Of a stretch of 64,000 nt of DNA, positions 10,215 through 33,418 are shown one piece after another. Where the stretch lies: assembly GCF_054482595.1 (NCBI RefSeq), contig NZ_CM137008.1; one strand, written 5' to 3'. The position numbers and the translations under genes are program-made. The stretch's first letter is position 1, and every line of letters starts with the position of its first letter. Below the pieces are notes generated by a model. It saw only the letters and a list, made by a program, of their open reading frames with translations, was not told the origin of the DNA and ran no database searches.

Positions 10215-11573
10215 ATGGAACAATATGATCAAATTGGCGCAAGACTGGACCGCTTGCCTTTGGCCCGGTTTCATTATCGTATATTTGGTATTATAAGCTT
10301 TAGTCTGTTATTAACAGGGTTTTTGAGTTACTCCGGTAATGTCGTCTTAGCAAAGCTGGTAAGCAATGGATGGTCAAATAATTTCCTCAATGCCGCCTTT
10401 ACCTCGGCATTAATGTTTGGTTATTTCATCGGCTCTCTTACCGGTGGGTTCATCGGTGATTACTTTGGGCGGCGCAGGGCGTTTCGCATAAATCTTCTCA
10501 TCGTCGGTATTGCTGCAACAGGGGCCGCTTTTGTCCCTGATATGTACTGGCTCATCTTCTTTCGCTTCCTGATGGGAACAGGAATGGGGGCGCTGATTAT
10601 GGTTGGCTATGCCTCATTTACGGAGTTTATCCCCGCGACGGTGCGTGGAAAATGGTCCGCGCGGCTCTCATTTGTTGGTAACTGGTCGCCCATGCTGTCT
10701 GCGGCGATAGGTGTGGTGGTTATCGCTTTTTTTAGTTGGCGGATAATGTTTCTGCTGGGTGGTATTGGCATACTGTTAGCCTGGTTTCTTTCAGGTAAAT
10801 ACTTTATTGAGTCGCCACGATGGCTGGCAGGGAAAGGGCAAATCGCAGGTGCAGAAAGCCAACTTCGTGAAGTAGAGCAGCAAATTGAAAGAGAGAAGAG
10901 TATTCGTTTACCCCCGCTTACTTCGTATCAGAGCAACAGCAAGGTTAAAGTAATCAAGGGTACTTTCTGGCTCCTGTTTAAAGGTGAAATGTTACGACGT
11001 ACATTAGTCGCGATTACTGTTTTAATTGCAATGAACATTTCGCTTTATACCATCACCGTATGGATACCGACCATATTTGTTAACTCCGGCATTGATGTCG
11101 ATAAATCAATATTAATGACCGCTGTTATTATGATTGGCGCTCCGGTAGGAATATTTATTGCGGCATTAATTATTGATCATTTTCCTCGTCGGTTATTTGG
11201 CTCCACCTTACTTATTATTATTGCCGTGTTAGGCTATATCTATTCAATTCAGACTACAGAGTGGGCGATTTTAATCTATGGCCTGGTGATGATATTCTTT
11301 TTATACATGTATGTTTGCTTCGCGTCGGCGGTTTATATCCCGGAGCTTTGGCCAACGCATTTACGCCTGCGCGGTTCGGGTTTCGTTAATGCCGTCGGAC
11401 GGATCGTCGCAGTCTTCACGCCCTATGGCGTTGCGGCATTATTAACACATTATGGGTCGATCACGGTGTTTATGGTACTTGGTGTCATGTTATTGCTCTG
11501 TGCGCTGGTTCTCTCCATTTTTGGCATCGAAACGCGAAAGGTGTCGTTGGAAGAGATTTCTGAGGTGAATTAA
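10215..11573 (+). CDS. ydjE: MFS-family transporter YdjE
   Basis: ORF 10110-11573; start placed at MEQYDQIGARLDRL (452 aa); GDYFGRRRA MFS motif; paralogous in layout to YdjK. Confidence 0.85.
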   Translation: MEQYDQIGARLDRLPLARFHYRIFGIISFSLLLTGFLSYSGNVVLAKLVSNGWSNNFLNAAFTSALMFGYFIGSLTGGFIGDYFGRRRAFRINLLIVGIAATGAAFVPDMYWLIFFRFLMGTGMGALIMVGYASFTEFIPATVRGKWSARLSFVGNWSPMLSAAIGVVVIAFFSWRIMFLLGGIGILLAWFLSGKYFIESPRWLAGKGQIAGAESQLREVEQQIEREKSIRLPPLTSYQSNSKVKVIKGTFWLLFKGEMLRRTLVAITVLIAMNISLYTITVWIPTIFVNSGIDVDKSILMTAVIMIGAPVGIFIAALIIDHFPRRLFGSTLLIIIAVLGYIYSIQTTEWAILIYGLVMIFFLYMYVCFASAVYIPELWPTHLRLRGSGFVNAVGRIVAVFTPYGVAALLTHYGSITVFMVLGVMLLLCALVLSIFGIETRKVSLEEISEVN

Positions 11574-16056: not shown

Positions 16057-16172
16057 TAATTGTCGCGAAACTGTCTGGATTGTGAGCAAAGGCGCAGGAA
16101 TTCAGACACTCTCACTTATCACTTCACGGAATGAGGGTTACCATACCCGGATTGCATTGACAGGAGATGTCC

Positions 16173-17216
16173 ATGAGCGAGAACTCGATTCGTTTGACCC
16201 AATACAGCCACGGAGCTGGTTGCGGCTGTAAAATTTCCCCAAAAGTGTTGGAAACCATCCTGCACAGTGAGCAGGCGAAGTTTGTTGATCCGAATTTGCT
16301 TGTGGGTAATGAAACCCGCGACGATGCGGCGGTGTACGATCTGGGCAATGGCACCAGCGTTATCAGTACTACCGACTTCTTTATGCCGATCGTTGATAAT
16401 CCTTTCGATTTTGGCCGCATTGCGGCGACTAACGCCATCAGCGATATCTTCGCGATGGGGGGCAAACCGATTATGGCGATTGCGATCCTCGGCTGGCCGA
16501 TTAACAAACTTTCCCCAGAAATTGCCCGCGAAGTAACCGAAGGTGGACGCTATGCATGCCGTCAGGCGGGTATTGCGCTGGCTGGCGGTCACTCCATCGA
16601 TGCGCCGGAGCCGATTTTTGGTCTGGCGGTAACGGGGATCGTACCGACCGAGCGGGTGAAGAAAAACAGTACCGCACAAGCCGGATGCAAACTGTTCCTG
16701 ACGAAACCGCTGGGGATCGGCGTTCTTACCACGGCTGAGAAAAAATCACTGCTGAAACCAGAACATCAGGGACTGGCGACGGAAGTGATGTGCCGGATGA
16801 ACATCGCAGGCGCGTCCTTTGCCAACATTGAAGGCGTAAAAGCGATGACCGACGTAACGGGCTTTGGCCTGCTGGGCCATTTGAGCGAAATGTGTCAGGG
16901 CGCAGGTGTGCAGGCGCGTGTTGACTATGACGCGATCCCGAAATTGCCGGGGGTTGAAGAGTACATTAAGTTGGGTGCAGTGCCTGGCGGCACCGAACGT
17001 AACTTTGCCAGCTACGGTCATCTGATGGGTGAAATGCCGCGTGAAGTGCGCGATTTGCTGTGCGATCCGCAAACTTCTGGCGGTTTGCTGCTGGCGGTCA
17101 TGCCGGAAGCAGAAAATGAGGTTAAAGCTACAGCCGCCGAGTTTGGCATTGAACTGACGGCGATTGGCGAACTGGTGCCAGCGCGCGGCGGTCGTGCCAT
17201 GGTTGAGATCCGTTAA
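16173..17216 (+). CDS. selD: Selenide, water dikinase (selenophosphate synthetase)
   Basis: [12 protein letters not shown]-terminal active-site loop and AIR-synthase-like fold; start at MSENSIRL (347 aa). Confidence 0.92.
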
Positions 17217-22770: not shown

Positions 22771-23397
22771 GTGCCTGTGCTAGACCGCCATCTTCATCCC
22801 CGGATTAAACCGTTGTTGCATCAGTGCGTGCGGGTTCTTGATAAACCGGGCATTACGCCAGATGGTTTAACATTAGTGGGATTTGCCATCGGCGTGCTGG
22901 CTCTGCCGTTTCTGGCTCTGGGCTGGTATCTGGCGGCGCTTGTCGTCATTTTGTTGAATCGTCTGCTTGATGGTCTGGATGGCGCACTGGCGCGGCGCAG
23001 AGGGCTTACCGACGCGGGCGGCTTTCTTGATATTTCTCTCGATTTTCTCTTTTACGCGCTGGTGCCGTTTGGTTTTATTCTTGCTGCACCGGAGCAAAAT
23101 GCGCTGGCAGGCGGCTGGTTGTTGTTTGCGTTTATCGGTACGGGCAGCAGTTTTCTCGCCTTTGCTGCGCTGGCGGCGAAACATCAGATTGATAATCCCG
23201 GTTATGCGCATAAATCGTTTTATTATCTGGGGGGATTAACCGAAGGCACAGAAACGATCTTACTGTTTGTGCTGGGATGTTTATTCCCTGCATGGTTTGC
23301 GTGGTTTGCGTGGATCTTCGGTGCGTTGTGCTGGATGACGACCTTTACGCGGGTGTGGAGTGGGTATCTGACGCTGAAGTCGCTCCAGCGTCAGTAA
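22771..23397 (+). CDS. ynjF: CDP-alcohol phosphatidyltransferase-family membrane protein YnjF (GTG start; the true start may be the second GTG at 22777)
   Basis: Polytopic membrane ORF with the CDP-OH phosphotransferase motif region DGxxAR (LDGLDGALARRRGLTDAGG); no ATG at the 5' end. Confidence 0.8.
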   Translation: MPVLDRHLHPRIKPLLHQCVRVLDKPGITPDGLTLVGFAIGVLALPFLALGWYLAALVVILLNRLLDGLDGALARRRGLTDAGGFLDISLDFLFYALVPFGFILAAPEQNALAGGWLLFAFIGTGSSFLAFAALAAKHQIDNPGYAHKSFYYLGGLTEGTETILLFVLGCLFPAWFAWFAWIFGALCWMTTFTRVWSGYLTLKSLQRQ

Positions 23398-23405
23398 TTG
23401 CAATG

Positions 23406-24713
23406 TTATTTGCTGCTGTCCGGGCCGCGTTCACCGGTTGCTACCGGATTTTTTGGATCGCTGCTCCATTCGTACCAGCCGCCGTCGTAAACGGAGACGT
23501 TATTCCAGCCCATTGCTCGTGCGTACATAAAGGTTTCGGACGCGCGCCAGCCGGTGCCGCAGTAGAATGAAACTTGCTGATCTGGTTTGATATTCCATGC
23601 TTTCCACATAGCGGTAATATCATCGGCGCTACGCATGGTGCCATCCGGGTTATGGAAATCTTCCATATGCGTCGAGTCGCTACCAGCGTGTCCCCAACGT
23701 GCTCCGGCTATTTCACCTTTTGGTTTAATATAGCTGTAACCGCTGGTCGTACCGATAAACTCCGGCCACGAACGAATGCTCACCAGCGATGCATCCTGGC
23801 GATGCAGCAGTCCACGGGCCTGTTCCATATCGAGCATCAACTGCGGTTGTGCCGGGATCTTCACGCCGAAATCCGGTTCCGCTTTCACTTTCGGTGGCGT
23901 TCCTCGCTCAACAGGCAGTCCCGCGTCGGACCAGGTTTGCCAGCCGCCATCCAGCAGGCGCACATCTTTCACGCCTGCATACAGCATAATCTGCGCCACA
24001 CGCGCTGCAGCGTATACGTCACGCCCGTACAGAATGACCGTGGTGTCATGGCGAATGCCGTGTTTTGCCAGCATCGCTTTTAGTTGTTCATCAGAAACTT
24101 TGTTCCACAGCGGTTCGCTTTCCACTTCGTTGGTATCGATGTAGTCAGCACCGGGAATATGGCTGATAAGGTAAAGCTTAGGAGCGCCCCAGGCCGCTTC
24201 AATGACTTTCCAGTCTCCGGCAGGTTTCGCCGTAACCTCTTTACCTTGTTGCAGGTCGTGCAGCCATTGCGGATAAACCAGCTGCTCAAAGTGCGGCAGT
24301 TTTTGTAGACGGGAAGGTTCGCTTAGCGCGTCACTCAGAATGGAGATATGCGTAAAACCTGCTTTTTGCAGTCGCGTTTTGACGGCGTCGACATCTTTGC
24401 CATTACCGTACAGCGCCACCGGGGCATCGGCTTTCAGGTTATGTTGCTTGATCCACGCGTTGAGCTGTTCGGTGCTCATTTTGTCAAGCCAGCTAGCAGA
24501 GAGGTTTAAGGCGGCAGGTTCATGACCAGAAGGGCCATTTAAGGTTTGTGGCCAGCCGTTATAAAACGCGCTGGGGCGAGTATCTATCGCTTTGCCATTT
24601 TGTTGTTGAAGCTGGTCAAGTGTAAGAGGCTTCGCCAGTTCAGCGGCCCACGAAGAAGCGCAAGCCAGCCCTAAAGCCATTGCCAGCGCGGTCATTTGAG
24701 AAACACGTTTCAT
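23406..24713 (-). CDS. ynjE: Periplasmic triple-rhodanese thiosulfate sulfurtransferase YnjE
   Basis: Signal peptide MKRVSQMTALAMALGLACASSWA and a C-terminal rhodanese active site CGTGWRAS; start at MKRVSQ (435 aa). Confidence 0.88.
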   Translation of the reverse strand: MKRVSQMTALAMALGLACASSWAAELAKPLTLDQLQQQNGKAIDTRPSAFYNGWPQTLNGPSGHEPAALNLSASWLDKMSTEQLNAWIKQHNLKADAPVALYGNGKDVDAVKTRLQKAGFTHISILSDALSEPSRLQKLPHFEQLVYPQWLHDLQQGKEVTAKPAGDWKVIEAAWGAPKLYLISHIPGADYIDTNEVESEPLWNKVSDEQLKAMLAKHGIRHDTTVILYGRDVYAAARVAQIMLYAGVKDVRLLDGGWQTWSDAGLPVERGTPPKVKAEPDFGVKIPAQPQLMLDMEQARGLLHRQDASLVSIRSWPEFIGTTSGYSYIKPKGEIAGARWGHAGSDSTHMEDFHNPDGTMRSADDITAMWKAWNIKPDQQVSFYCGTGWRASETFMYARAMGWNNVSVYDGGWYEWSSDPKNPVATGERGPDSSK

Positions 24714-24779: not shown

Positions 24780-25433
24780 TTATCGCAGTTTGTTGTAATT
24801 TTCTGACCACTGAGCCATATCCAGAACAGAACTATCAGCAGGAACATCCTGGAGATCGTGCGTTACCTGAACGACGGGGATCGCCAGGGCGCGAACTTCG
24901 CTGAACACCCACTGGCGAAAATTATCGCGCAGAGCCACATCAAGACGGCTGAATGGCTCATCCAGTAGCAACGCTTTTGGCTGAGCGAGAAGGGCGCGAA
25001 GCAGAGCAACGCGCGCTCGCTGACCGCCAGACAAAGTGGCAGGATCCTGATGGAAAGCTCCGTCAAGGCCTGAACGCTCAAGTGCATCATTCACGGCATT
25101 ACGTCGGGCATTCCCCTTAAGTGTCGCCGGTAGCGCCAGCAGTAAATTTTGCCCGACACTGAACTGGTCAAATAACAGTGCATCCTGAAAAAGAATGCCA
25201 ATCTGACGCTGTGCGGTGGGTAGCATGTCAATCCGTTGCTCATTGAGCCATAGCTCACCTGTACAAGAAAACTGTCCGGCCAGTGCACCAATCATCCATG
25301 AAAACAGAGTGGATTTTCCACAGCCAGACGGCCCCATTAACGTGACAATGTCACCTTTATCCACCGTAAAGTTAACGTTTGTCAGCAAGCGGCTTTCTGG
25401 TAAACGTAGCGAAACATTTTTCACGCAGAGCAT
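24780..25433 (-). CDS. ynjD: ABC transporter ATP-binding protein YnjD
   Basis: Walker A GPSGCGKST, ABC signature LSGGQRARVAL, Walker B LLLDEPFS; start at MLCVKNVSL (217 aa), overlapping the ynjC stop. Confidence 0.88.
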   Translation of the reverse strand: MLCVKNVSLRLPESRLLTNVNFTVDKGDIVTLMGPSGCGKSTLFSWMIGALAGQFSCTGELWLNEQRIDMLPTAQRQIGILFQDALLFDQFSVGQNLLLALPATLKGNARRNAVNDALERSGLDGAFHQDPATLSGGQRARVALLRALLAQPKALLLDEPFSRLDVALRDNFRQWVFSEVRALAIPVVQVTHDLQDVPADSSVLDMAQWSENYNKLR

Positions 25434-26968
25434 TAGCGGAGTCCTTGTCTGACATAACCTACCCATTTTGCGACTAACGCGGTCAGGGCAAAAATAATAA
25501 GCGGTAATAGCAGTTGCCATAAAGCCTGGGCGGCGAGAATACCGTTGCTGCCGCCGCTGCTTAATGCCACCGCCTCAGTGGTGAGCGTCGGAAAACGCCC
25601 CGCGCCCAGCCACAGCGTCGGCATATACTGCGCAATACTGACTGAAAATCCCACTGCGAAGGCAATCAGCGTAGGGCGTAGCATAAACGGACATTTCACG
25701 TAAAAGAAGATTTTGACACGCGACCAGCCCAGCGTTTGCGCAATCAAAATTAACCGTGAATCAATGCGCTGCCAGGCGGGTTGCAGGATAAACAGCATCC
25801 ACGGTATTACCCACAGCAGATGCCCCCAGACCACCGCCGTCCAGCTCCCATCCAGGTTCAGCCAGAGCGCCAGCGTGTACTGGCCCGCCACCAGCGGCAG
25901 TGCCGGTAATAAAATGGGCAACCATAACCACAACTGGCGACGCTGTGGCCCCCATTCCAGCCACAGCAGTAACAGGAGCAAAGCGATGAATGTCGCCACC
26001 AGCCCCATTGTCAGGCTGTTGATGAGCGCTTCACTATTGATCGTTGATTGATCCGCGAGGATCGCCAGCAGAACCACACACAGCACACCGGTCAAGGGTA
26101 AAAAACTCGCCAGCGTAATGCCTGGCAATAAAGGCGTGGCAAGCTTGCGAACGCCATCTACGCGGGGAATAGTACGCCGCCAGCTACGCCATAGCAGATA
26201 GCCCAGCAAAACGTAGGCGGCGAGTAACAGCATCAGCAGCAGGCTGGCGAGTGCGCCTTTAATCTGTTGATCGGTATCGCCCTGGGTTAACCACTGCCAG
26301 CTAATTACCGCAAGCGTCGGTGGATTACCTGGCCCAAGAATAATCGCCACATCCACGACCGACAGCGACCAGGCAACAATCGCCAGCATCGCCATTGCAA
26401 GTGCAGGAGCAACGGAGGGCAACAGCAGCCAGTTCAAACATTGCCAACGGCTGTAACCCAGCGAATCCAGCACAATGACCTGCTGCAACAGCCGTTTTTC
26501 ACTCAATACCGCTGCTAAGATCCACAGCAGAAATGCGCTTTCTTTCACCGCCAGCGTGAAGCCCAGCCCAATACCCAATTTGTCCATTGGCGGAGTGAAA
26601 TACGGGAAATAGTCATAAAGCAGCCCTCCGTCAGCAAAGAGCAGAAGGGCGCTGGTGGCAAAAGCCACATGGGGAATGGCGAGCAGCCACGGCAGACGGG
26701 TGCACATACGCTGCCATTTCGGCCCAGGCCACAGCGCCACAATCACCAGCAGGGCAATCAACAACGCCCCGACCGCCGCGATGGTTGTCGACACCAGCGT
26801 TGCCAGTAATGCCTGCGGTAACTGTGGATCGGCAAATAACGCCTGCCAGTGTGTCAACGACAAAGCAGGCGATATCAGCGTGAGAGCTGCCGGGATCAGC
26901 GGTGCATAAATCACCGCCACCATCGCCCACAGCAAAAAGATTAATGCGTACCGTAACGGTGTAGCCAT
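25433..26968 (-). CDS. ynjC: ABC transporter permease YnjC (duplicated six-TM permease, fused type)
   Basis: About 511 aa, highly hydrophobic, two permease repeats as in ThiP/FbpB-type importers; start overlaps the ynjB 3' end by 28 bp. Confidence 0.85.
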   Translation of the reverse strand: MATPLRYALIFLLWAMVAVIYAPLIPAALTLISPALSLTHWQALFADPQLPQALLATLVSTTIAAVGALLIALLVIVALWPGPKWQRMCTRLPWLLAIPHVAFATSALLLFADGGLLYDYFPYFTPPMDKLGIGLGFTLAVKESAFLLWILAAVLSEKRLLQQVIVLDSLGYSRWQCLNWLLLPSVAPALAMAMLAIVAWSLSVVDVAIILGPGNPPTLAVISWQWLTQGDTDQQIKGALASLLLMLLLAAYVLLGYLLWRSWRRTIPRVDGVRKLATPLLPGITLASFLPLTGVLCVVLLAILADQSTINSEALINSLTMGLVATFIALLLLLLWLEWGPQRRQLWLWLPILLPALPLVAGQYTLALWLNLDGSWTAVVWGHLLWVIPWMLFILQPAWQRIDSRLILIAQTLGWSRVKIFFYVKCPFMLRPTLIAFAVGFSVSIAQYMPTLWLGAGRFPTLTTEAVALSSGGSNGILAAQALWQLLLPLIIFALTALVAKWVGYVRQGLR

Positions 26969-28107
26969 TCTTGTTCCAGCGCATTTACCCAACCTGCGTG
27001 CGGTTCAGCCAGTACTGGCGGCAGATCTTGAGGCATTCTTGATTGCAATGTTTCGCGCTGCCCATCAGGCAGTTTTTGCGGATCGAGAACAGAAGGATCG
27101 CCCCAGACAGCGGGATCTGCTTTACGCAATTGCGCATCGGGTGAGAGCAAGAAATTGGCAACTACCTTCGCCGCAGCACTGGCATTCGCGTTGGCAGGAA
27201 TGGTGACGAAATGCACGTTGCCAATCATCCCCTCGCGAAAGCCAAAACTGTAACTGCTTGCAGGCAAATCGCCGCTGGCGATTTTTTGCTGCGCATGCGC
27301 GGGGTTAAAGGTCAGCGACAGGCGCAATGTGCCGGATTTCAGCAGAGCATCCATCCGCGCGGGCGAAGGCGGGAAATCCTTTCCTTCGCGCCACAAATAC
27401 GGATGCAGCGCATCAAGATATTGCCACAAGGGAGCAGTGACACGGGCGAAAGTCGCATCGTCCGGCGCTTCTTTTAATGCGGCGGGATCGGGCGTCAGCA
27501 TAATCAGCAACTGTTCAAGAAACGCCGTGCCGGTAAAGTCCGGTGGGCGCGGATAGGTAACCGTGCCGGGATTGGCTTTAGCAAACTCCAGTAAGGCTTG
27601 CGGCGTTTGTGGTGGCTGTGGCGTAACATCGCGGCGGGCGATAAATGTCAGTTGTGCGCCCCCCCAGGGCGATTCAGCCCCTTCTGTAGGCACTGAAAAA
27701 TCTTCCCGCACCGGCAGCTGTGTGTCGACATAGCGCCAGTTGGGCAGAGTCTCTGCCCAGTCGGTTTGCAGTAAATTGGCCTCTTTTAAGGTGCGGAAGT
27801 TTTCGCCGTTCACCCAGAGCAGATCCACCGAGCCGCCCGTTTTACGTCCGGCAGCAGCTTCGGTCTGAATGCGCTTCACCGCGTCTGCGGCATCCGCCAG
27901 ACGAACAATCTTCAGGTTTATAGCGTAATGGGTTTTCATCTCGCCGCTCACCCAGTCGAGATAGCGGTTAATTGCGGTATCGCCGCCCCAGGCGTTAAAC
28001 CAGACAGTTTGCCCTTTGGCCTCATTATTAATTTCTTGCCAGTCACTGGCATGTGTTGCCAGAGAAAACAGCGAGAACAATCCCAGCAACCACCCACAAT
28101 GGCGCAT
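26941..28107 (-). CDS. ynjB: ABC transporter periplasmic substrate-binding protein YnjB
   Basis: 388-aa ORF with an N-terminal signal peptide (MRHCGWLLGLFSLFSLATHA) and a thiamine/iron/sulfate-type binding-protein fold by recollection. Confidence 0.85.
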   Translation of the reverse strand: MRHCGWLLGLFSLFSLATHASDWQEINNEAKGQTVWFNAWGGDTAINRYLDWVSGEMKTHYAINLKIVRLADAADAVKRIQTEAAAGRKTGGSVDLLWVNGENFRTLKEANLLQTDWAETLPNWRYVDTQLPVREDFSVPTEGAESPWGGAQLTFIARRDVTPQPPQTPQALLEFAKANPGTVTYPRPPDFTGTAFLEQLLIMLTPDPAALKEAPDDATFARVTAPLWQYLDALHPYLWREGKDFPPSPARMDALLKSGTLRLSLTFNPAHAQQKIASGDLPASSYSFGFREGMIGNVHFVTIPANANASAAAKVVANFLLSPDAQLRKADPAVWGDPSVLDPQKLPDGQRETLQSRMPQDLPPVLAEPHAGWVNALEQEWLHRYGTH

Positions 28108-28116
28108 CATCTCTCC

Positions 28117-28665
28117 TTAAGAACGTTTTTCCGGAATACGGCACAGCCCCTGAGCGGGAATGTCCATGGCAGAATTAAAACGGGCTGACAGATTTTGCAG
28201 GCCGATCAATGCCGTCAGTTCGGTGAGCGCCTGAGCGTCAAAATGCGCAGCCAGTCGGGTGCGCAGGGCATCATCGACCGTTGGCGGTGTGACGCTTGCG
28301 GCTTCGGCGTACTCCAGCGCCAGCCGTTCTTCATCGCTGAAGAGCGGGCTTTGCCGCCAGTCAGCCACTGCCAGCAGTTTATCGCTGCTGCCGGTGCGCT
28401 CGGCGACTTTCATACTGGTGATATCCACGCAAAACTCACACAGGCACATTTGCGCAATGCGCGCGCTGACAAGCGATCGTACTACCGGATCGAGCGGTGA
28501 GCGTTTGCGCTCCAGCCAGCCAACAAACATCGACACCAGATAAAAGATAAACGGGATCCGCCCCCACCAGCGAATGGGGCTTAGCACCTCGCCGTAATGG
28601 CGACGATGCAGCCACGCCTGCGGACGTAAAATGAAAGGAATTTTGCTAAGCGGCGGTAAACCCAT
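28117..28665 (-). CDS. ynjA: AhpD-like / carboxymuconolactone decarboxylase-family protein YnjA
   Basis: 182-aa ORF containing the Cys-rich core MCLCEFCVDITS typical of the AhpD-like fold; its stop overlaps the ydjZ region (ATGA junction at 28665). Confidence 0.8.
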   Translation of the reverse strand: MGLPPLSKIPFILRPQAWLHRRHYGEVLSPIRWWGRIPFIFYLVSMFVGWLERKRSPLDPVVRSLVSARIAQMCLCEFCVDITSMKVAERTGSSDKLLAVADWRQSPLFSDEERLALEYAEAASVTPPTVDDALRTRLAAHFDAQALTELTALIGLQNLSARFNSAMDIPAQGLCRIPEKRS

Positions 28666-29372
28666 CAGGCATTCCTCTTCTGGCGCTCAAGCCATATTTT
28701 CTTCGCCATAAAAATCACCACGCTCAGGGCAAACAGAATAAACAGTCCGGTGACAAACCAGAAGGTACCGCCTGTTAACATGCTGCCCGCCCAGGAATAA
28801 ACAATAGTCGCCGGTAACTGACCAAGCCCGGTGGCGATAAAAAACGAGCGAAAACGGATTGAAGTCAAACCGGCAGCATAGCTGATTGGATCGAAAGGGA
28901 CAAAAGGCAATAACCGACAGACCAGGATAGTGTGTTTGCCGTAGCGAGTGAAAAAGCCGTCCATACTGTCAAGTACGGTTTTGCCGGTTAATTTTTCCAC
29001 CACTTCGCGGCCCATCACTCTGGCGATAAAAAAGCACAGCGCCGCGCCGGCCATCGAACTGGTCCACGACAGCAAGCCGCCCCAGAGCGCGCCAAACAGC
29101 GACGCATTGGCAAAGGTGATCAAAAACGCAGGTAGCGGTGCAGCAATGGCCTGCAAAATCATCAACAAGAACGAGACAACTGCCGCCAGTGCGCCGTAAG
29201 ACTGAATAAAGCGTTCTATACCCTGTTGGTCCACGGCGGCAAACGCCGCAACGCTGCGATTGATAAACTCATGGACGCTGGGAAGCAGCGCCCATGCCAG
29301 CAGCATAGCGAACAACAGGATGATGAGGGTTATACGGTAGTACCAGATTTTTCGCGATTGCATCTTCATCAT
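28665..29372 (-). CDS. ydjZ: DedA/TVP38-family inner-membrane protein YdjZ
   Basis: 235-aa polytopic ORF with the DedA-family core (…RLLPFVPFDPISYAAGLT…). Confidence 0.85.
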   Translation of the reverse strand: MMKMQSRKIWYYRITLIILLFAMLLAWALLPSVHEFINRSVAAFAAVDQQGIERFIQSYGALAAVVSFLLMILQAIAAPLPAFLITFANASLFGALWGGLLSWTSSMAGAALCFFIARVMGREVVEKLTGKTVLDSMDGFFTRYGKHTILVCRLLPFVPFDPISYAAGLTSIRFRSFFIATGLGQLPATIVYSWAGSMLTGGTFWFVTGLFILFALSVVIFMAKKIWLERQKRNA

Positions 29373-29386
29373 CCTTTATCCTGGCT

Positions 29387-30064
29387 TTATTCGGTGATTT
29401 TAAAGGTAACCGTTGCCAGCGTGTTATCCGCCGGGAGAACCGAGGCATTGCCTTTGAATTTAACTTCACCTCGTTTTTCAACCGCACCATAAGTGTATGT
29501 TGCATTGCTGACGATGCCGACCGGGCAGCTATCCAGACACACCAGGCAACCCGTTTTCTTCTCTTCTGCTGCCGTTAAATTACCGCCAAAGCGCATGTCC
29601 AGTTTCTTGCCATTACTGTCAACAATCACTTCATCGAAGGAATACGTTTTTGCCGCCCCTTGCCAGTTGACCGAAATATCCAGTTTGCTGCCCGTGACAT
29701 GAGTCGTTTCTTTATTATCCATCGTCATGTTTTCGCCCGGCGTACCACCTGCCTCTTTCAGGGCTTCATAAAATGCTTTCGGGGTCGCATAACCCATAAA
29801 CAGCGATTTATGTCCGTTGGAGCCATCTTTAAACACAATACCGTGACGAGTGTCGTCGGTGAGGAAACGACCATTAATTTGCACCAGCATGGTTACCGTA
29901 TGGTTATTGGCATCGACGCGCAGCGGTTGGCTGTTCGAAAGTCCGTCGTATTCCACTTTTGCCGCCGCATTCTCTTTTTGATCACAGCCGCTAAGCCCAG
30001 CAACAGCCAGTAAGCAGAGTGCAGTCAGTCCTTTTTTCCATGACACTGAATAATGTTGCAACAT
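29387..30064 (-). CDS. ydjY: Periplasmic lipoprotein YdjY with a C-terminal CxxCxxxC motif
   Basis: Start placed at MLQHYSVSWKKGLTALCLLAVAGLSGC (lipobox LSGC, 225 aa); C-terminal CLVCLDSC metal-binding-like motif. Confidence 0.8.
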   Translation of the reverse strand: MLQHYSVSWKKGLTALCLLAVAGLSGCDQKENAAAKVEYDGLSNSQPLRVDANNHTVTMLVQINGRFLTDDTRHGIVFKDGSNGHKSLFMGYATPKAFYEALKEAGGTPGENMTMDNKETTHVTGSKLDISVNWQGAAKTYSFDEVIVDSNGKKLDMRFGGNLTAAEEKKTGCLVCLDSCPVGIVSNATYTYGAVEKRGEVKFKGNASVLPADNTLATVTFKITE

Positions 30065-30068
30065 CGTT

Positions 30069-30779
30069 CTATCCTTCATTTTTTGGGTGAGTAAGTGGGT
30101 TGCGGCGCGAAGCAGACAGATCCACATGTTTGTGTCGGGCGTAGAGTTTGGCGAGCTGGACGAGAATAAACAGCGCCAGGCCCGCCAGACAGAGTTGTAA
30201 AATAAAGCGCAGCGTAATGCCTTCATTGGCGAGATCGCTTGCCATCACGGTATAAATAACAATACCGGGCAGGGTCGTGAGTGCCGAAATAAGGATATAA
30301 GGCCAGAAGGCGATTGTGGTTAATCCGTAAGCGTAATTTTGAATATTGTAAGGAAACAACGGGATTAAGCGGGTCAGAATAAGAAAATCAATACCGTTAC
30401 GCGCAATGCCTTTTTCAATGGCCTGGAAGGTATGGCTATGGCCAACGTATTTCAGCAGTAAATCACGTCCCAGCCAGCGCGCCAGCAGGAATGAGCACGA
30501 GGAGGCCAGCGTAGCGGCAATTAATGAGAGTAGTGTCCCTAAGAGCGGGCCAAAAACTATTCCTCCCGCGATCACCAGTATGCTTCCTGGTAACAGAAAG
30601 AGGGTGGCAATAATGAATAACAGAATATAGAGGCTATAACCGAACAATCCGCTCTGGCGAATGAGTGTCTGTAAGTGGGGTAAATCGGTGAGCAGATCGA
30701 ATAAACCGAAAGCGTGGATAGCGTAAATGACCAGCGCAAAAATAAGACAGGCAAAAAGAAATTTACGCTCAGCGTTCAT
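30069..30779 (-). CDS. ydjX: DedA/TVP38-family inner-membrane protein YdjX
   Basis: Start placed at MNAERKFLFA (236 aa); paralogous to YdjZ (…RLIPLFPYNIQNYAYGLT… versus …RLLPFVPFDPISYAAGLT…). Confidence 0.85.
   Translation of the reverse strand: MNAERKFLFACLIFALVIYAIHAFGLFDLLTDLPHLQTLIRQSGLFGYSLYILLFIIATLFLLPGSILVIAGGIVFGPLLGTLLSLIAATLASSCSFLLARWLGRDLLLKYVGHSHTFQAIEKGIARNGIDFLILTRLIPLFPYNIQNYAYGLTTIAFWPYILISALTTLPGIVIYTVMASDLANEGITLRFILQLCLAGLALFILVQLAKLYARHKHVDLSASRRNPLTHPKNEG

Positions 30780-32161: not shown

Positions 32162-33414
<1,253 letters not shown>

Positions 33415-33418
<4 letters not shown>

Follow-up and report, generated by a model that had tools for sequence, protein, structure and literature searches.

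The 64,000-nucleotide stretch of Escherichia coli DNA analysed here (contig NZ_CM137008.1 of RefSeq assembly GCF_054482595.1; hereafter, the window) contains ydjY, a gene for a lipoprotein located between ydjX and ydjZ, two genes for VTT/DedA membrane proteins. Our analysis revealed that one histidine and three cysteines of YdjY are kept almost throughout its family, and that the gene is nearly always accompanied by a gene for a VTT protein, commonly of a cysteine-bearing subfamily. From sequence and gene context, we tentatively read YdjY and its VTT partner as a periplasmic system that may capture sulfane sulfur or selenium on thiols and relay it onwards. The ydjY gene, the models of its family and its ferredoxin-like label already existed. 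What appears to be new is the conservation of His and three Cys, the near-constant pairing with cysteine-bearing VTT proteins, the fusions with rhodaneses, and the linkage to SelD, YedF and selenium carriers, none of which was found in the literature searched; a 2022 preprint on new selenoprotein families mentions neither YdjY nor DedA nor rhodanese. No functional study of YdjY was found in that literature, and for ydjX, ydjZ and ynjA-C it yielded regulon tables, proteome lists and DedA surveys, with no functional work.

Translation of positions 29387-30064 of the minus strand confirmed the coordinates, the strand and the lipobox LSGC reported for ydjY in the initial annotation. The open reading frame (ORF) encodes 225 amino acids, MLQHYSVSWKKGLTALCLLAVAGLSGCDQ...KKTGCLVCLDSCPVGIV...KITE, and residues 49-223 match the NCBIfam ydjY_domain model NF040466 (146.4 bits vs. 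a cutoff of 50); PF27149, the Pfam counterpart of this model, is the precomputed assignment carried by YdjY homologues. The codon positions likewise bear out the CxxCxxxC spacing of Cys173, Cys176 and Cys180 (C-x2-C-x3-C-P, in the context KKTG-C...C-PVG). The motif had been described as C-terminal; it is present, but 45 residues before the end of YdjY rather than at the very terminus. Both His74 and the family signature TGCxxCLDSCPVG were found in the protein from the window (Table 1). In a longer ORF of 279 amino acids (29387-30226, minus strand), 54 codons precede the annotated start of ydjY, and this extension overlaps ydjX at the 3' end of the latter. This long form occurs in an older O157:H7 annotation, and in a proteome paper the start was shifted 54 residues downstream (PMC3210124); we prefer the short, 225-residue form because the signal peptide fits the annotated start.

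Since a C-x2-C-x3-C pattern is expected by chance in a 225-residue protein at about 3e-4, i.e., approximately once per proteome, the case for the triad rests on its conservation. An exhaustive HMMER search for YdjY homologues gave 314 cluster representatives, and 95 near-full-length homologues from this set, with 26-77% identity, were aligned (homologues are designated below by P numbers and genomic loci by L numbers). Absence of the cysteines in orthologues had been named in advance as evidence against a functional motif; the opposite was seen, Cys173 being kept in 90 of 95 homologues, Cys176 and Cys180 in 93 each, and His74 in 91. Several losses are joint: P0170 lacks His74, Cys176 and Cys180, P0219 lacks all four residues, and P0208 lacks both His74 and Cys173, the latter being replaced by Asp. 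Cys173 alone is replaced, by Thr, Ser or Glu, in three other homologues. As exactly three cysteines are present in 60 of the 95 YdjY domains, not all of them can be engaged in structural disulfides. Among 21,115 position pairs, ranked by mutual information with average product correction in 221 non-redundant YdjY sequences, the top covariation pair was 73-178, with the residue combinations R-D (152 times), W-Y (10) and H-Q (9); pairs 76-175, 73-182 and 72-178 also ranked high. The strand beginning at His74 therefore packs on the Cys176-Cys180 loop, and the four residues may form a composite site with a His74/Cys176-x3-Cys180 core and Cys173 as an accessory residue. A distant subfamily (P0243, P0252, P0260, P0261 and P0263) carries the variant SGCxxCLxSCPGG, Trp at position 78, and an additional N-terminal domain of about 190 amino acids with a conserved CxC.

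YdjY is an extracytoplasmic protein. An N-terminal hydrophobic signal-like run was found in 90 of the 95 homologues and a lipobox in 56, and the signal is of the Sec or lipoprotein type rather than twin-arginine (Tat) in 94. Inspection of the E. coli YdjY signal peptide showed no twin-arginine motif; it ends with the lipobox AVAGLSGC, which satisfies the pattern [LVI][ASTVI][GAS]C and predicts acylation at Cys27 (codon 29984-29986), followed by Asp28 at position +2 (29981-29983). In E. coli, Asp directly after the lipobox cysteine is an inner-membrane retention signal; because Asp28 occupies this position, YdjY should stay in the inner membrane next to YdjX and YdjZ. The protein was detected by proteomics in O157:H7, where the lipoprotein listing gives the lipobox as LSGC..D (PMC3210124). 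Twin-arginine-type signals were seen in two homologues, L049 7113-7859 and P0206 (SRRHFLRS and SRRGFLAG), the former being encoded in tandem with a Sec-type YdjY copy.

The position of ydjY between two DedA genes was upheld, as the products of both flanking genes score well above the PF09335 cutoff of 33.9 bits and thus belong to the VTT superfamily; annotation and the literature place them in the COG0398/TVP38 subfamily (PMC10127716). For the analysis of gene context, 80 ydjY loci were fetched from about 20 lineages, including Escherichia/Citrobacter, Peptostreptococcaceae, Finegoldia, Gemella, Catonella, Facklamia, Clostridium, Bacillus, Thermincola, Sulfurospirillum, Campylobacter, Desulfarculus, Syntrophales and others; with L002 and L003, added from contig look-ups, 82 loci were counted. 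The sample is context-biased by the search route and many loci are redundant within genera; as they were retrieved with patterns of the Cys motif, they bear on gene context, not on the conservation of the cysteines. In 74 of the 82 loci, a bona fide VTT ORF was found near ydjY, the median gap being 64 bp, and of the eight loci without it, five were on contigs shorter than 9 kb. Hence the arrangement, initially described as unusual, is real but by no means isolated. A VTT protein of the YdjZ type is encoded in 60 loci (median 54% identity to E. coli YdjZ). Cys113 is present in 58/58 and Cys152 in 54/58 of these YdjZ-type partners, vs. 0/36 and 4/36, respectively, in the co-encoded YdjX-type paralogues; in E. 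coli YdjZ the two residues occur in the contexts GAALCF (C113) and CRLLPF (C152).

Further genes recur in the neighbourhood. Rhodaneses resembling YnjE were found in 19 loci, ATP-binding cassette (ABC) transporters of the YnjB type in 18 and phosphatidyltransferases resembling YnjF in 10; therefore, most of the gene block seen in E. coli accompanies the module in other phyla too, at least in some of their lineages. An HdrD/GlpC-like Fer4+CCG protein is encoded in 25 loci and is fused to the VTT protein in Deltaproteobacteria, the fusion being confirmed by Pfam for L046 and deduced from clustering and sequence for L022, L078 and L049. We also observed, right after ydjY in 64 of the 82 loci, a gene for a small polytopic membrane protein of 125-150 amino acids with a W-L-E-M-R motif, which has no Pfam or NCBIfam match; in Firmicutes, it forms a single polypeptide with the VTT protein.

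Rhodanese domains are fused to YdjY in both orders, as rhodanese-YdjY in P0151 and P0153 and as YdjY-rhodanese in P0181, and all three proteins retain the rhodanese cysteine together with the YdjY histidine and Cys triad. Tandem YdjY-YdjY proteins also exist and retain both sites. Two further candidates, a VTT-YdjY protein (P0198) and a fusion with a fatty-acid hydroxylase family protein (FA_hydroxylase, P0234), have a lipoprotein-like signal inside the chain, ahead of YdjY; as they are possibly merged neighbouring genes, they were counted as adjacency.

SelD, YedF or the PF11823 selenium/sulfur carrier was found near ydjY in six loci (L022, L049, L075, L078, L079 and L088) from at least five lineages, with direct same-strand adjacency in three. 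In L088, six tightly packed genes of one strand encode a YdjZ-type VTT protein, a rhodanese-YdjY fusion, the small membrane protein, a YdjX-type VTT protein, YedF (TIGR03527, 188.7 bits vs. a cutoff of 110) and the PF11823 carrier; this operon faces a convergent set of genes, namely those for a YnjB-type ABC system and a CCG protein together with a YnjF-like gene. In L022, a CCG-VTT gene and ydjY are directly followed by selD; in L079, selD and yedF are followed by a small ORF and then ydjY; SelD and YedF (L078), or YedF, the selenium carrier and ArsS (L049), are encoded beside CCG-VTT and YdjY. In Facklamia lactis (L075), 16 kb contain genes for a kinase, a TIGR04283 glycosyltransferase, a PrdB-like selenoprotein with an in-frame TGA, ArsS, CcdA, a ResA-like protein, two VTT proteins, the small membrane protein, YdjY, a rhodanese, SelD, YedF, SelB and SelA. 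By a Poisson estimate assuming a 16-kb segment and a genome of about 3.5 Mb, roughly 0.1-0.4 SelD neighbours were expected by chance in this sample and four were seen (P of about 1e-3 or lower). YedE/YeeE (PF04143) was not found among the tested ORFs near YedF. In Bacillus benzoevorans and Facklamia, a PrdB/GrdB-like gene lies next to the YdjY module; its in-frame TGA is followed by the conserved YICHQSVGLIQ, giving a PG-U-YIC motif, and its product is a probable selenoprotein, judging from this codon context.

These data suggest the following scheme, our preferred reading, which is tentative as to chemistry, substrate and the direction in which it would move. The His/Cys site of YdjY, anchored in the inner membrane, would take a thiophilic chalcogen, most likely sulfane sulfur or selenium, from a periplasmic rhodanese (YnjE in E. 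coli, the YdjY-fused rhodanese domain in other bacteria) or react directly with selenite or polysulfide. The cargo might be held on Cys176 and Cys180 as a persulfide or an S-Se-S selenotrisulfide bridge, with Cys173 acting as the resolving residue or a third ligand, and would then be passed to the Cys pair of the YdjZ-type VTT protein for translocation across the membrane. On the cytoplasmic side, possible acceptors are YnjA with its CLCEFC motif in E. coli, and YedF, the selenium/sulfur carrier or the HdrD-like CCG protein elsewhere, from which the cargo could be released to SelD or to sulfur metabolism. A narrower version, in which YdjY, YdjZ/YdjX and YnjE constitute a dedicated high-affinity selenium route to SelD under anaerobiosis, is in our view rather doubtful; if true, it would be the first non-lipid, thiol-relay function in the VTT/DedA superfamily. 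The scheme addresses two gaps stated in the literature: the route by which E. coli imports sulfane sulfur generated in the periplasm is unknown (PMC10215317), and, according to a 2026 review (PMC13188914), prokaryotes have no known selenium transporter that is both specific and of high affinity. It would also provide the conserved, FNR-activated ydjXYZ-ynjABCD operon with a concrete candidate role and with named residues (His74, Cys173, Cys176 and Cys180 of YdjY; Cys113 and Cys152 of YdjZ), and the COG0398 branch of DedA/VTT with a partner and, perhaps, a substrate other than a lipid.

The proposed relay resembles several known systems. In MerP-MerT-MerA, a thiophilic cargo likewise moves from a periplasmic Cys motif to a membrane Cys pair and on to a cytoplasmic thiol/disulfide oxidoreductase, and this logic fits a published survey of COG0398 VTT proteins, whose commonest fusion partners are reported to be MerA-like pyridine-nucleotide disulfide oxidoreductases. 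Unlike MerP, however, YdjY has no HMA domain with its GMTCxxC motif by Pfam, NCBIfam or fold, its partner is a VTT protein and not MerT, no merR or other mer genes occur in the loci, and its neighbours indicate sulfur or selenium rather than mercury. The YeeE/YeeD system of thiosulfate uptake and the YedE/YedF system, proposed for selenium transport, also combine chalcogen import with a TusA-like cytoplasmic carrier, and YedF itself and the PF11823 carrier are encoded with YdjY (in one operon in L088, and adjoining the module in L049, L075, L078 and L079); the membrane proteins are of another family, though, and an extracytoplasmic Cys protein belongs to the YdjY system only. DsbD/CcdA resembles the module in that a membrane protein with two re-entrant or pseudo-symmetric halves contains a Cys pair, has a partner with a Cys motif in the periplasm and draws on a reductant in the cytoplasm, but no homology was detected, and YdjY lacks a thioredoxin fold.

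Several observations weigh against the capture and relay of sulfur or selenium. Most ydjY loci show neither sulfur nor selenium genes within 8 kb, and those of Gemella, Finegoldia and Sulfurospirillum consist only of YdjY, the small membrane protein and VTT. E. coli has neither the small membrane protein nor the CCG protein. The distant subfamily is found without VTT: at least one member, L085, is an orphan on a 144-kb contig (the other two distant homologues examined for context were on contigs shorter than 1.5 kb). No variant with selenocysteine in place of cysteine was seen among truncated and odd homologues and two loci without a called ORF, all of which were ordinary Cys forms or fragments. 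The two twin-arginine signals hint at a cofactor loaded in the cytoplasm, and Asp or Glu in place of Cys173, seen in two homologues, fits a metal ligand better than a relay thiol. Finally, a pathway of lipids or sugars is suggested by the co-conserved YnjF, kinase, TIGR04283 glycosyltransferase, ArsS and flippase-like protein, and VTT/DedA proteins are otherwise tied to lipid flipping in the literature.

The main alternative for the residues themselves is a Cys3His metal site binding Zn2+, Cu+ or Fe, either structural or serving metal binding or sensing for the VTT protein. The initial annotation had likened the spacing to that of metal or iron-sulfur/zinc-binding sites and suggested a redox- or metal-active protein, and this is supported in part. 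In favour of a metal site, the residues are conserved and lost together, covariation puts His74 beside the Cys loop, Cys173 tolerates acidic replacements, and three thiolates are canonical ligands for As(III), Zn or Cu. Some neighbours bear NCBIfam names of arsenosugar biosynthesis (ArsS, 432.8 bits; TIGR04283, 229.3 bits), and DedA proteins have been tied to metal or metalloid phenotypes in the literature. We consider a metal site a serious rival, but less likely than the relay. Genes for metal transport or resistance (P-type ATPase, CDF, MerR/ArsR) do not recur in the 82 loci, the recurrent partners being instead rhodaneses, TusA/DsrE-type carriers and disulfide reductase-like proteins, and neither sequence nor fold produced an HMA or Sco-like match. 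The two readings overlap, as a covalently bound Se or As atom is in effect a metalloid site; should the site be a plain structural one, the result would amount to an ordinary annotation detail. The iron-sulfur comparison fared worse, since all the defining ferredoxin features that were tested fail. The stretch KTGCLVCLDSCPVG of YdjY locally resembles CxxCxxCxxxCP, its CxxCxxxCP spacing being identical to that of Cys II-III-IV in 2x[4Fe-4S] ferredoxins, which is the origin of the database name; PDB ferredoxin-type subunits were the sole sequence matches (E = 0.27-0.34), and the twin-arginine signals of the two homologues would also agree with such a protein. Yet the Fer4 models score below their gathering thresholds (Fer4_3, 15.0 vs. 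27; Fer4_21, 13.9 vs. 35), and the four-Cys motif is not satisfied, only one half-motif being present. In E. coli, Lys170 stands in the place of Cys I; the homologues have N, K, G, Q or F there, with Cys in none of the 95. No ferredoxin-like fold emerged from the fold searches, and the prevalence of Sec and lipoprotein signals does not indicate export of a protein with a preloaded cofactor. We know of no route for iron-sulfur cluster assembly after Sec export. A 4Fe-4S ferredoxin-type protein, as implied by the database name, is thus largely refuted and highly improbable.

Two other readings concern what YdjY does with its VTT partner. It could be a periplasmic thiol:disulfide oxidoreductase, receiving electrons at Cys176-x3-Cys180 through Cys113/Cys152 of YdjZ in a DsbD/CcdA-like manner from YnjA or from HdrD-like CCG or MerA-like domains, and keeping the periplasmic rhodanese or other thiols reduced. 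The two-Cys signature specific to YdjZ-type VTT, the fusions of VTT with cytoplasmic disulfide-reductase-like domains, including the published MerA-like ones, and anaerobic expression of the operon are consistent with this, and one rhodanese from a ydjY locus best matches a model of a rhodanese/DsbD fusion selenoprotein. It is unlikely all the same: Cys152 is replaced by Ala in some YdjZ-type proteins, including that of L088, electron transfer is not known for any VTT/DedA protein, and the thioredoxin fold was absent from YdjY in sequence and fold searches, even though its CxxxC (176-180) and His74 recall Sco-type proteins. The function would moreover be redundant in Facklamia, where CcdA and the ResA-like protein are encoded in the same cluster, their co-occurrence with the module suggesting roles separate from that of YdjY. 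Alternatively, YdjY might act on a lipid or lipid-linked head group exposed by VTT scramblases, within a pathway leading to an unusual phospholipid or sugar-lipid, which might contain S, Se or As; this pathway would comprise the YnjBCD importer, a kinase, a nucleotidyl- or glycosyltransferase, ArsS and the YnjF phosphatidyltransferase. The literature describes VTT/COG0398 proteins as similar to eukaryotic scramblases, a kinase/glycosyltransferase cluster occurs in 18 loci and ArsS in 10, beside the YnjB- and YnjF-type genes counted above, the flippase-like protein recurs, and in P0234 YdjY is fused or adjacent to a fatty-acid hydroxylase family protein. But these genes are absent from most loci with YdjY and VTT, no lipid-binding or transferase fold is recognisable in YdjY, and the rhodanese fusions and the adjacency of YedF, selenium carrier and SelD are left unexplained, which makes this pathway very unlikely.

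The AlphaFold2 model of YdjY is confident, but no solved structure resembles it: sequence and profile searches of the PDB and Foldseek against the PDB gave nothing significant. The best structural match, the DUF371 protein 7y7n (10% identity, Foldseek E = 1.5), lacks Foldseek support and is uninformative because DUF371 has no known function; a literature search on DUF371 returned only unrelated papers on DUF37xx families.

In E. coli, the minus strand of the region carries, according to annotation, ydjX, ydjY, ydjZ, ynjA, ynjB, ynjC, ynjD and ynjE, in this order, with ynjF on the plus strand (Table 1). The region is present in 5424 of 5426 complete E. coli genomes, several strains being 100% identical. 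FNR controls the operon: ydjXYZ-ynjABCD belongs to the directly FNR-activated regulon by chromatin immunoprecipitation and expression data (PMC3688515), and in published expression data ydjY mRNA increases together with ynjE and other anaerobic genes. YnjE is described as periplasmic (PMC10215317). It falls into one BLAST cluster with rhodaneses that adjoin YdjY in Firmicutes, and its homologues adjoin or are fused to YdjY elsewhere.

Table 1. Coordinates of ydjY, its conserved residues and neighbouring genes in the window, and of selected genes at other ydjY loci (L numbers; positions within the respective locus).
Feature	Position	Strand	Description
ydjY coding sequence	29387..30064	-	YdjY domain NF040466 / PF27149; RefSeq label 'lipoprotein YdjY'; from translation
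Signal peptide of YdjY	29984..30064	-	Sec-type lipoprotein signal with lipobox LSGC at its end; from sequence
Cys173-L-V-Cys176-L-D-S-Cys180-Pro181	29522..29548	-	Conserved signature TGCxxCLDSCPVG; codons of Cys173 29546-29548, Cys176 29537-29539, Cys180 29525-29527
His74 codon	29843..29845	-	Near-invariant partner of the Cys triad in YdjY
ydjX	30069..30779	-	VTT/DedA (TVP38/TMEM64, COG0398); PF09335, 93.5 bits; stop 4 nt before the ydjY start
ydjZ	28665..29372	-	YdjZ-type VTT/DedA; PF09335, 87.2 bits; Cys113 29034-29036, Cys152 28917-28919
ynjA	28117..28665	-	AhpD/CMD-like; PF02627, 36.5 bits; candidate cytoplasmic thiol partner
ynjB-ynjC-ynjD	24780..28110	-	ABC transporter (binding protein, permease, ATPase); co-transcribed; module-linked in several Firmicutes
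ynjE	23406..24713	-	Three-domain rhodanese (thiosulfate sulfurtransferase), periplasmic; signal peptide in translation
ynjF	22777..23397	+	CDP-alcohol phosphatidyltransferase family; module-linked in Firmicutes
selD	16167..17216	+	Selenophosphate synthetase; from ORF and annotation; 12 kb from ydjY, loose linkage only
FNR-like site TTGAGAAAAATCAA	30889..30902	-	Upstream of ydjX; one mismatch to TTGAT-N4-ATCAA
PrdB/GrdB-like gene	L067 10995-11759; L075 1693-2460		In L067, TGA at about 11469-11471
Small membrane protein	L002 8649-9029; L026 8641-9036; L059 3311-3688; L088 9097-9483		Examples of separate genes
Small membrane protein as N-terminus of a VTT fusion	L003 8893-10119; L012 8694-9878
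Fer4+CCG-VTT single proteins	L046 9046-10896; L022 128-1774; L078 6023-7879; L049 5148-7001		548-618 amino acids

Two observations concern other proteins of the operon. The CLCEFC motif of YnjA is encoded at 28429-28446 (minus strand), and the best partial match of this protein is the NCBIfam model 'YciW-related (seleno)protein' (101 bits vs. a cutoff of 310). A comparison of YnjB with solved structures, made for a guess at the substrate of the ABC transporter, gave no match. Outside the operon, astC (32198-33418, plus strand) differs from its counterpart in strain XH990, which is otherwise identical over this gene, by a single C-to-T change at 32774, which converts CAG (Gln193) to TAG. As this stop codon splits the gene into ORFs of 192 and 209 amino acids, astC is probably a pseudogene in the sequenced strain.

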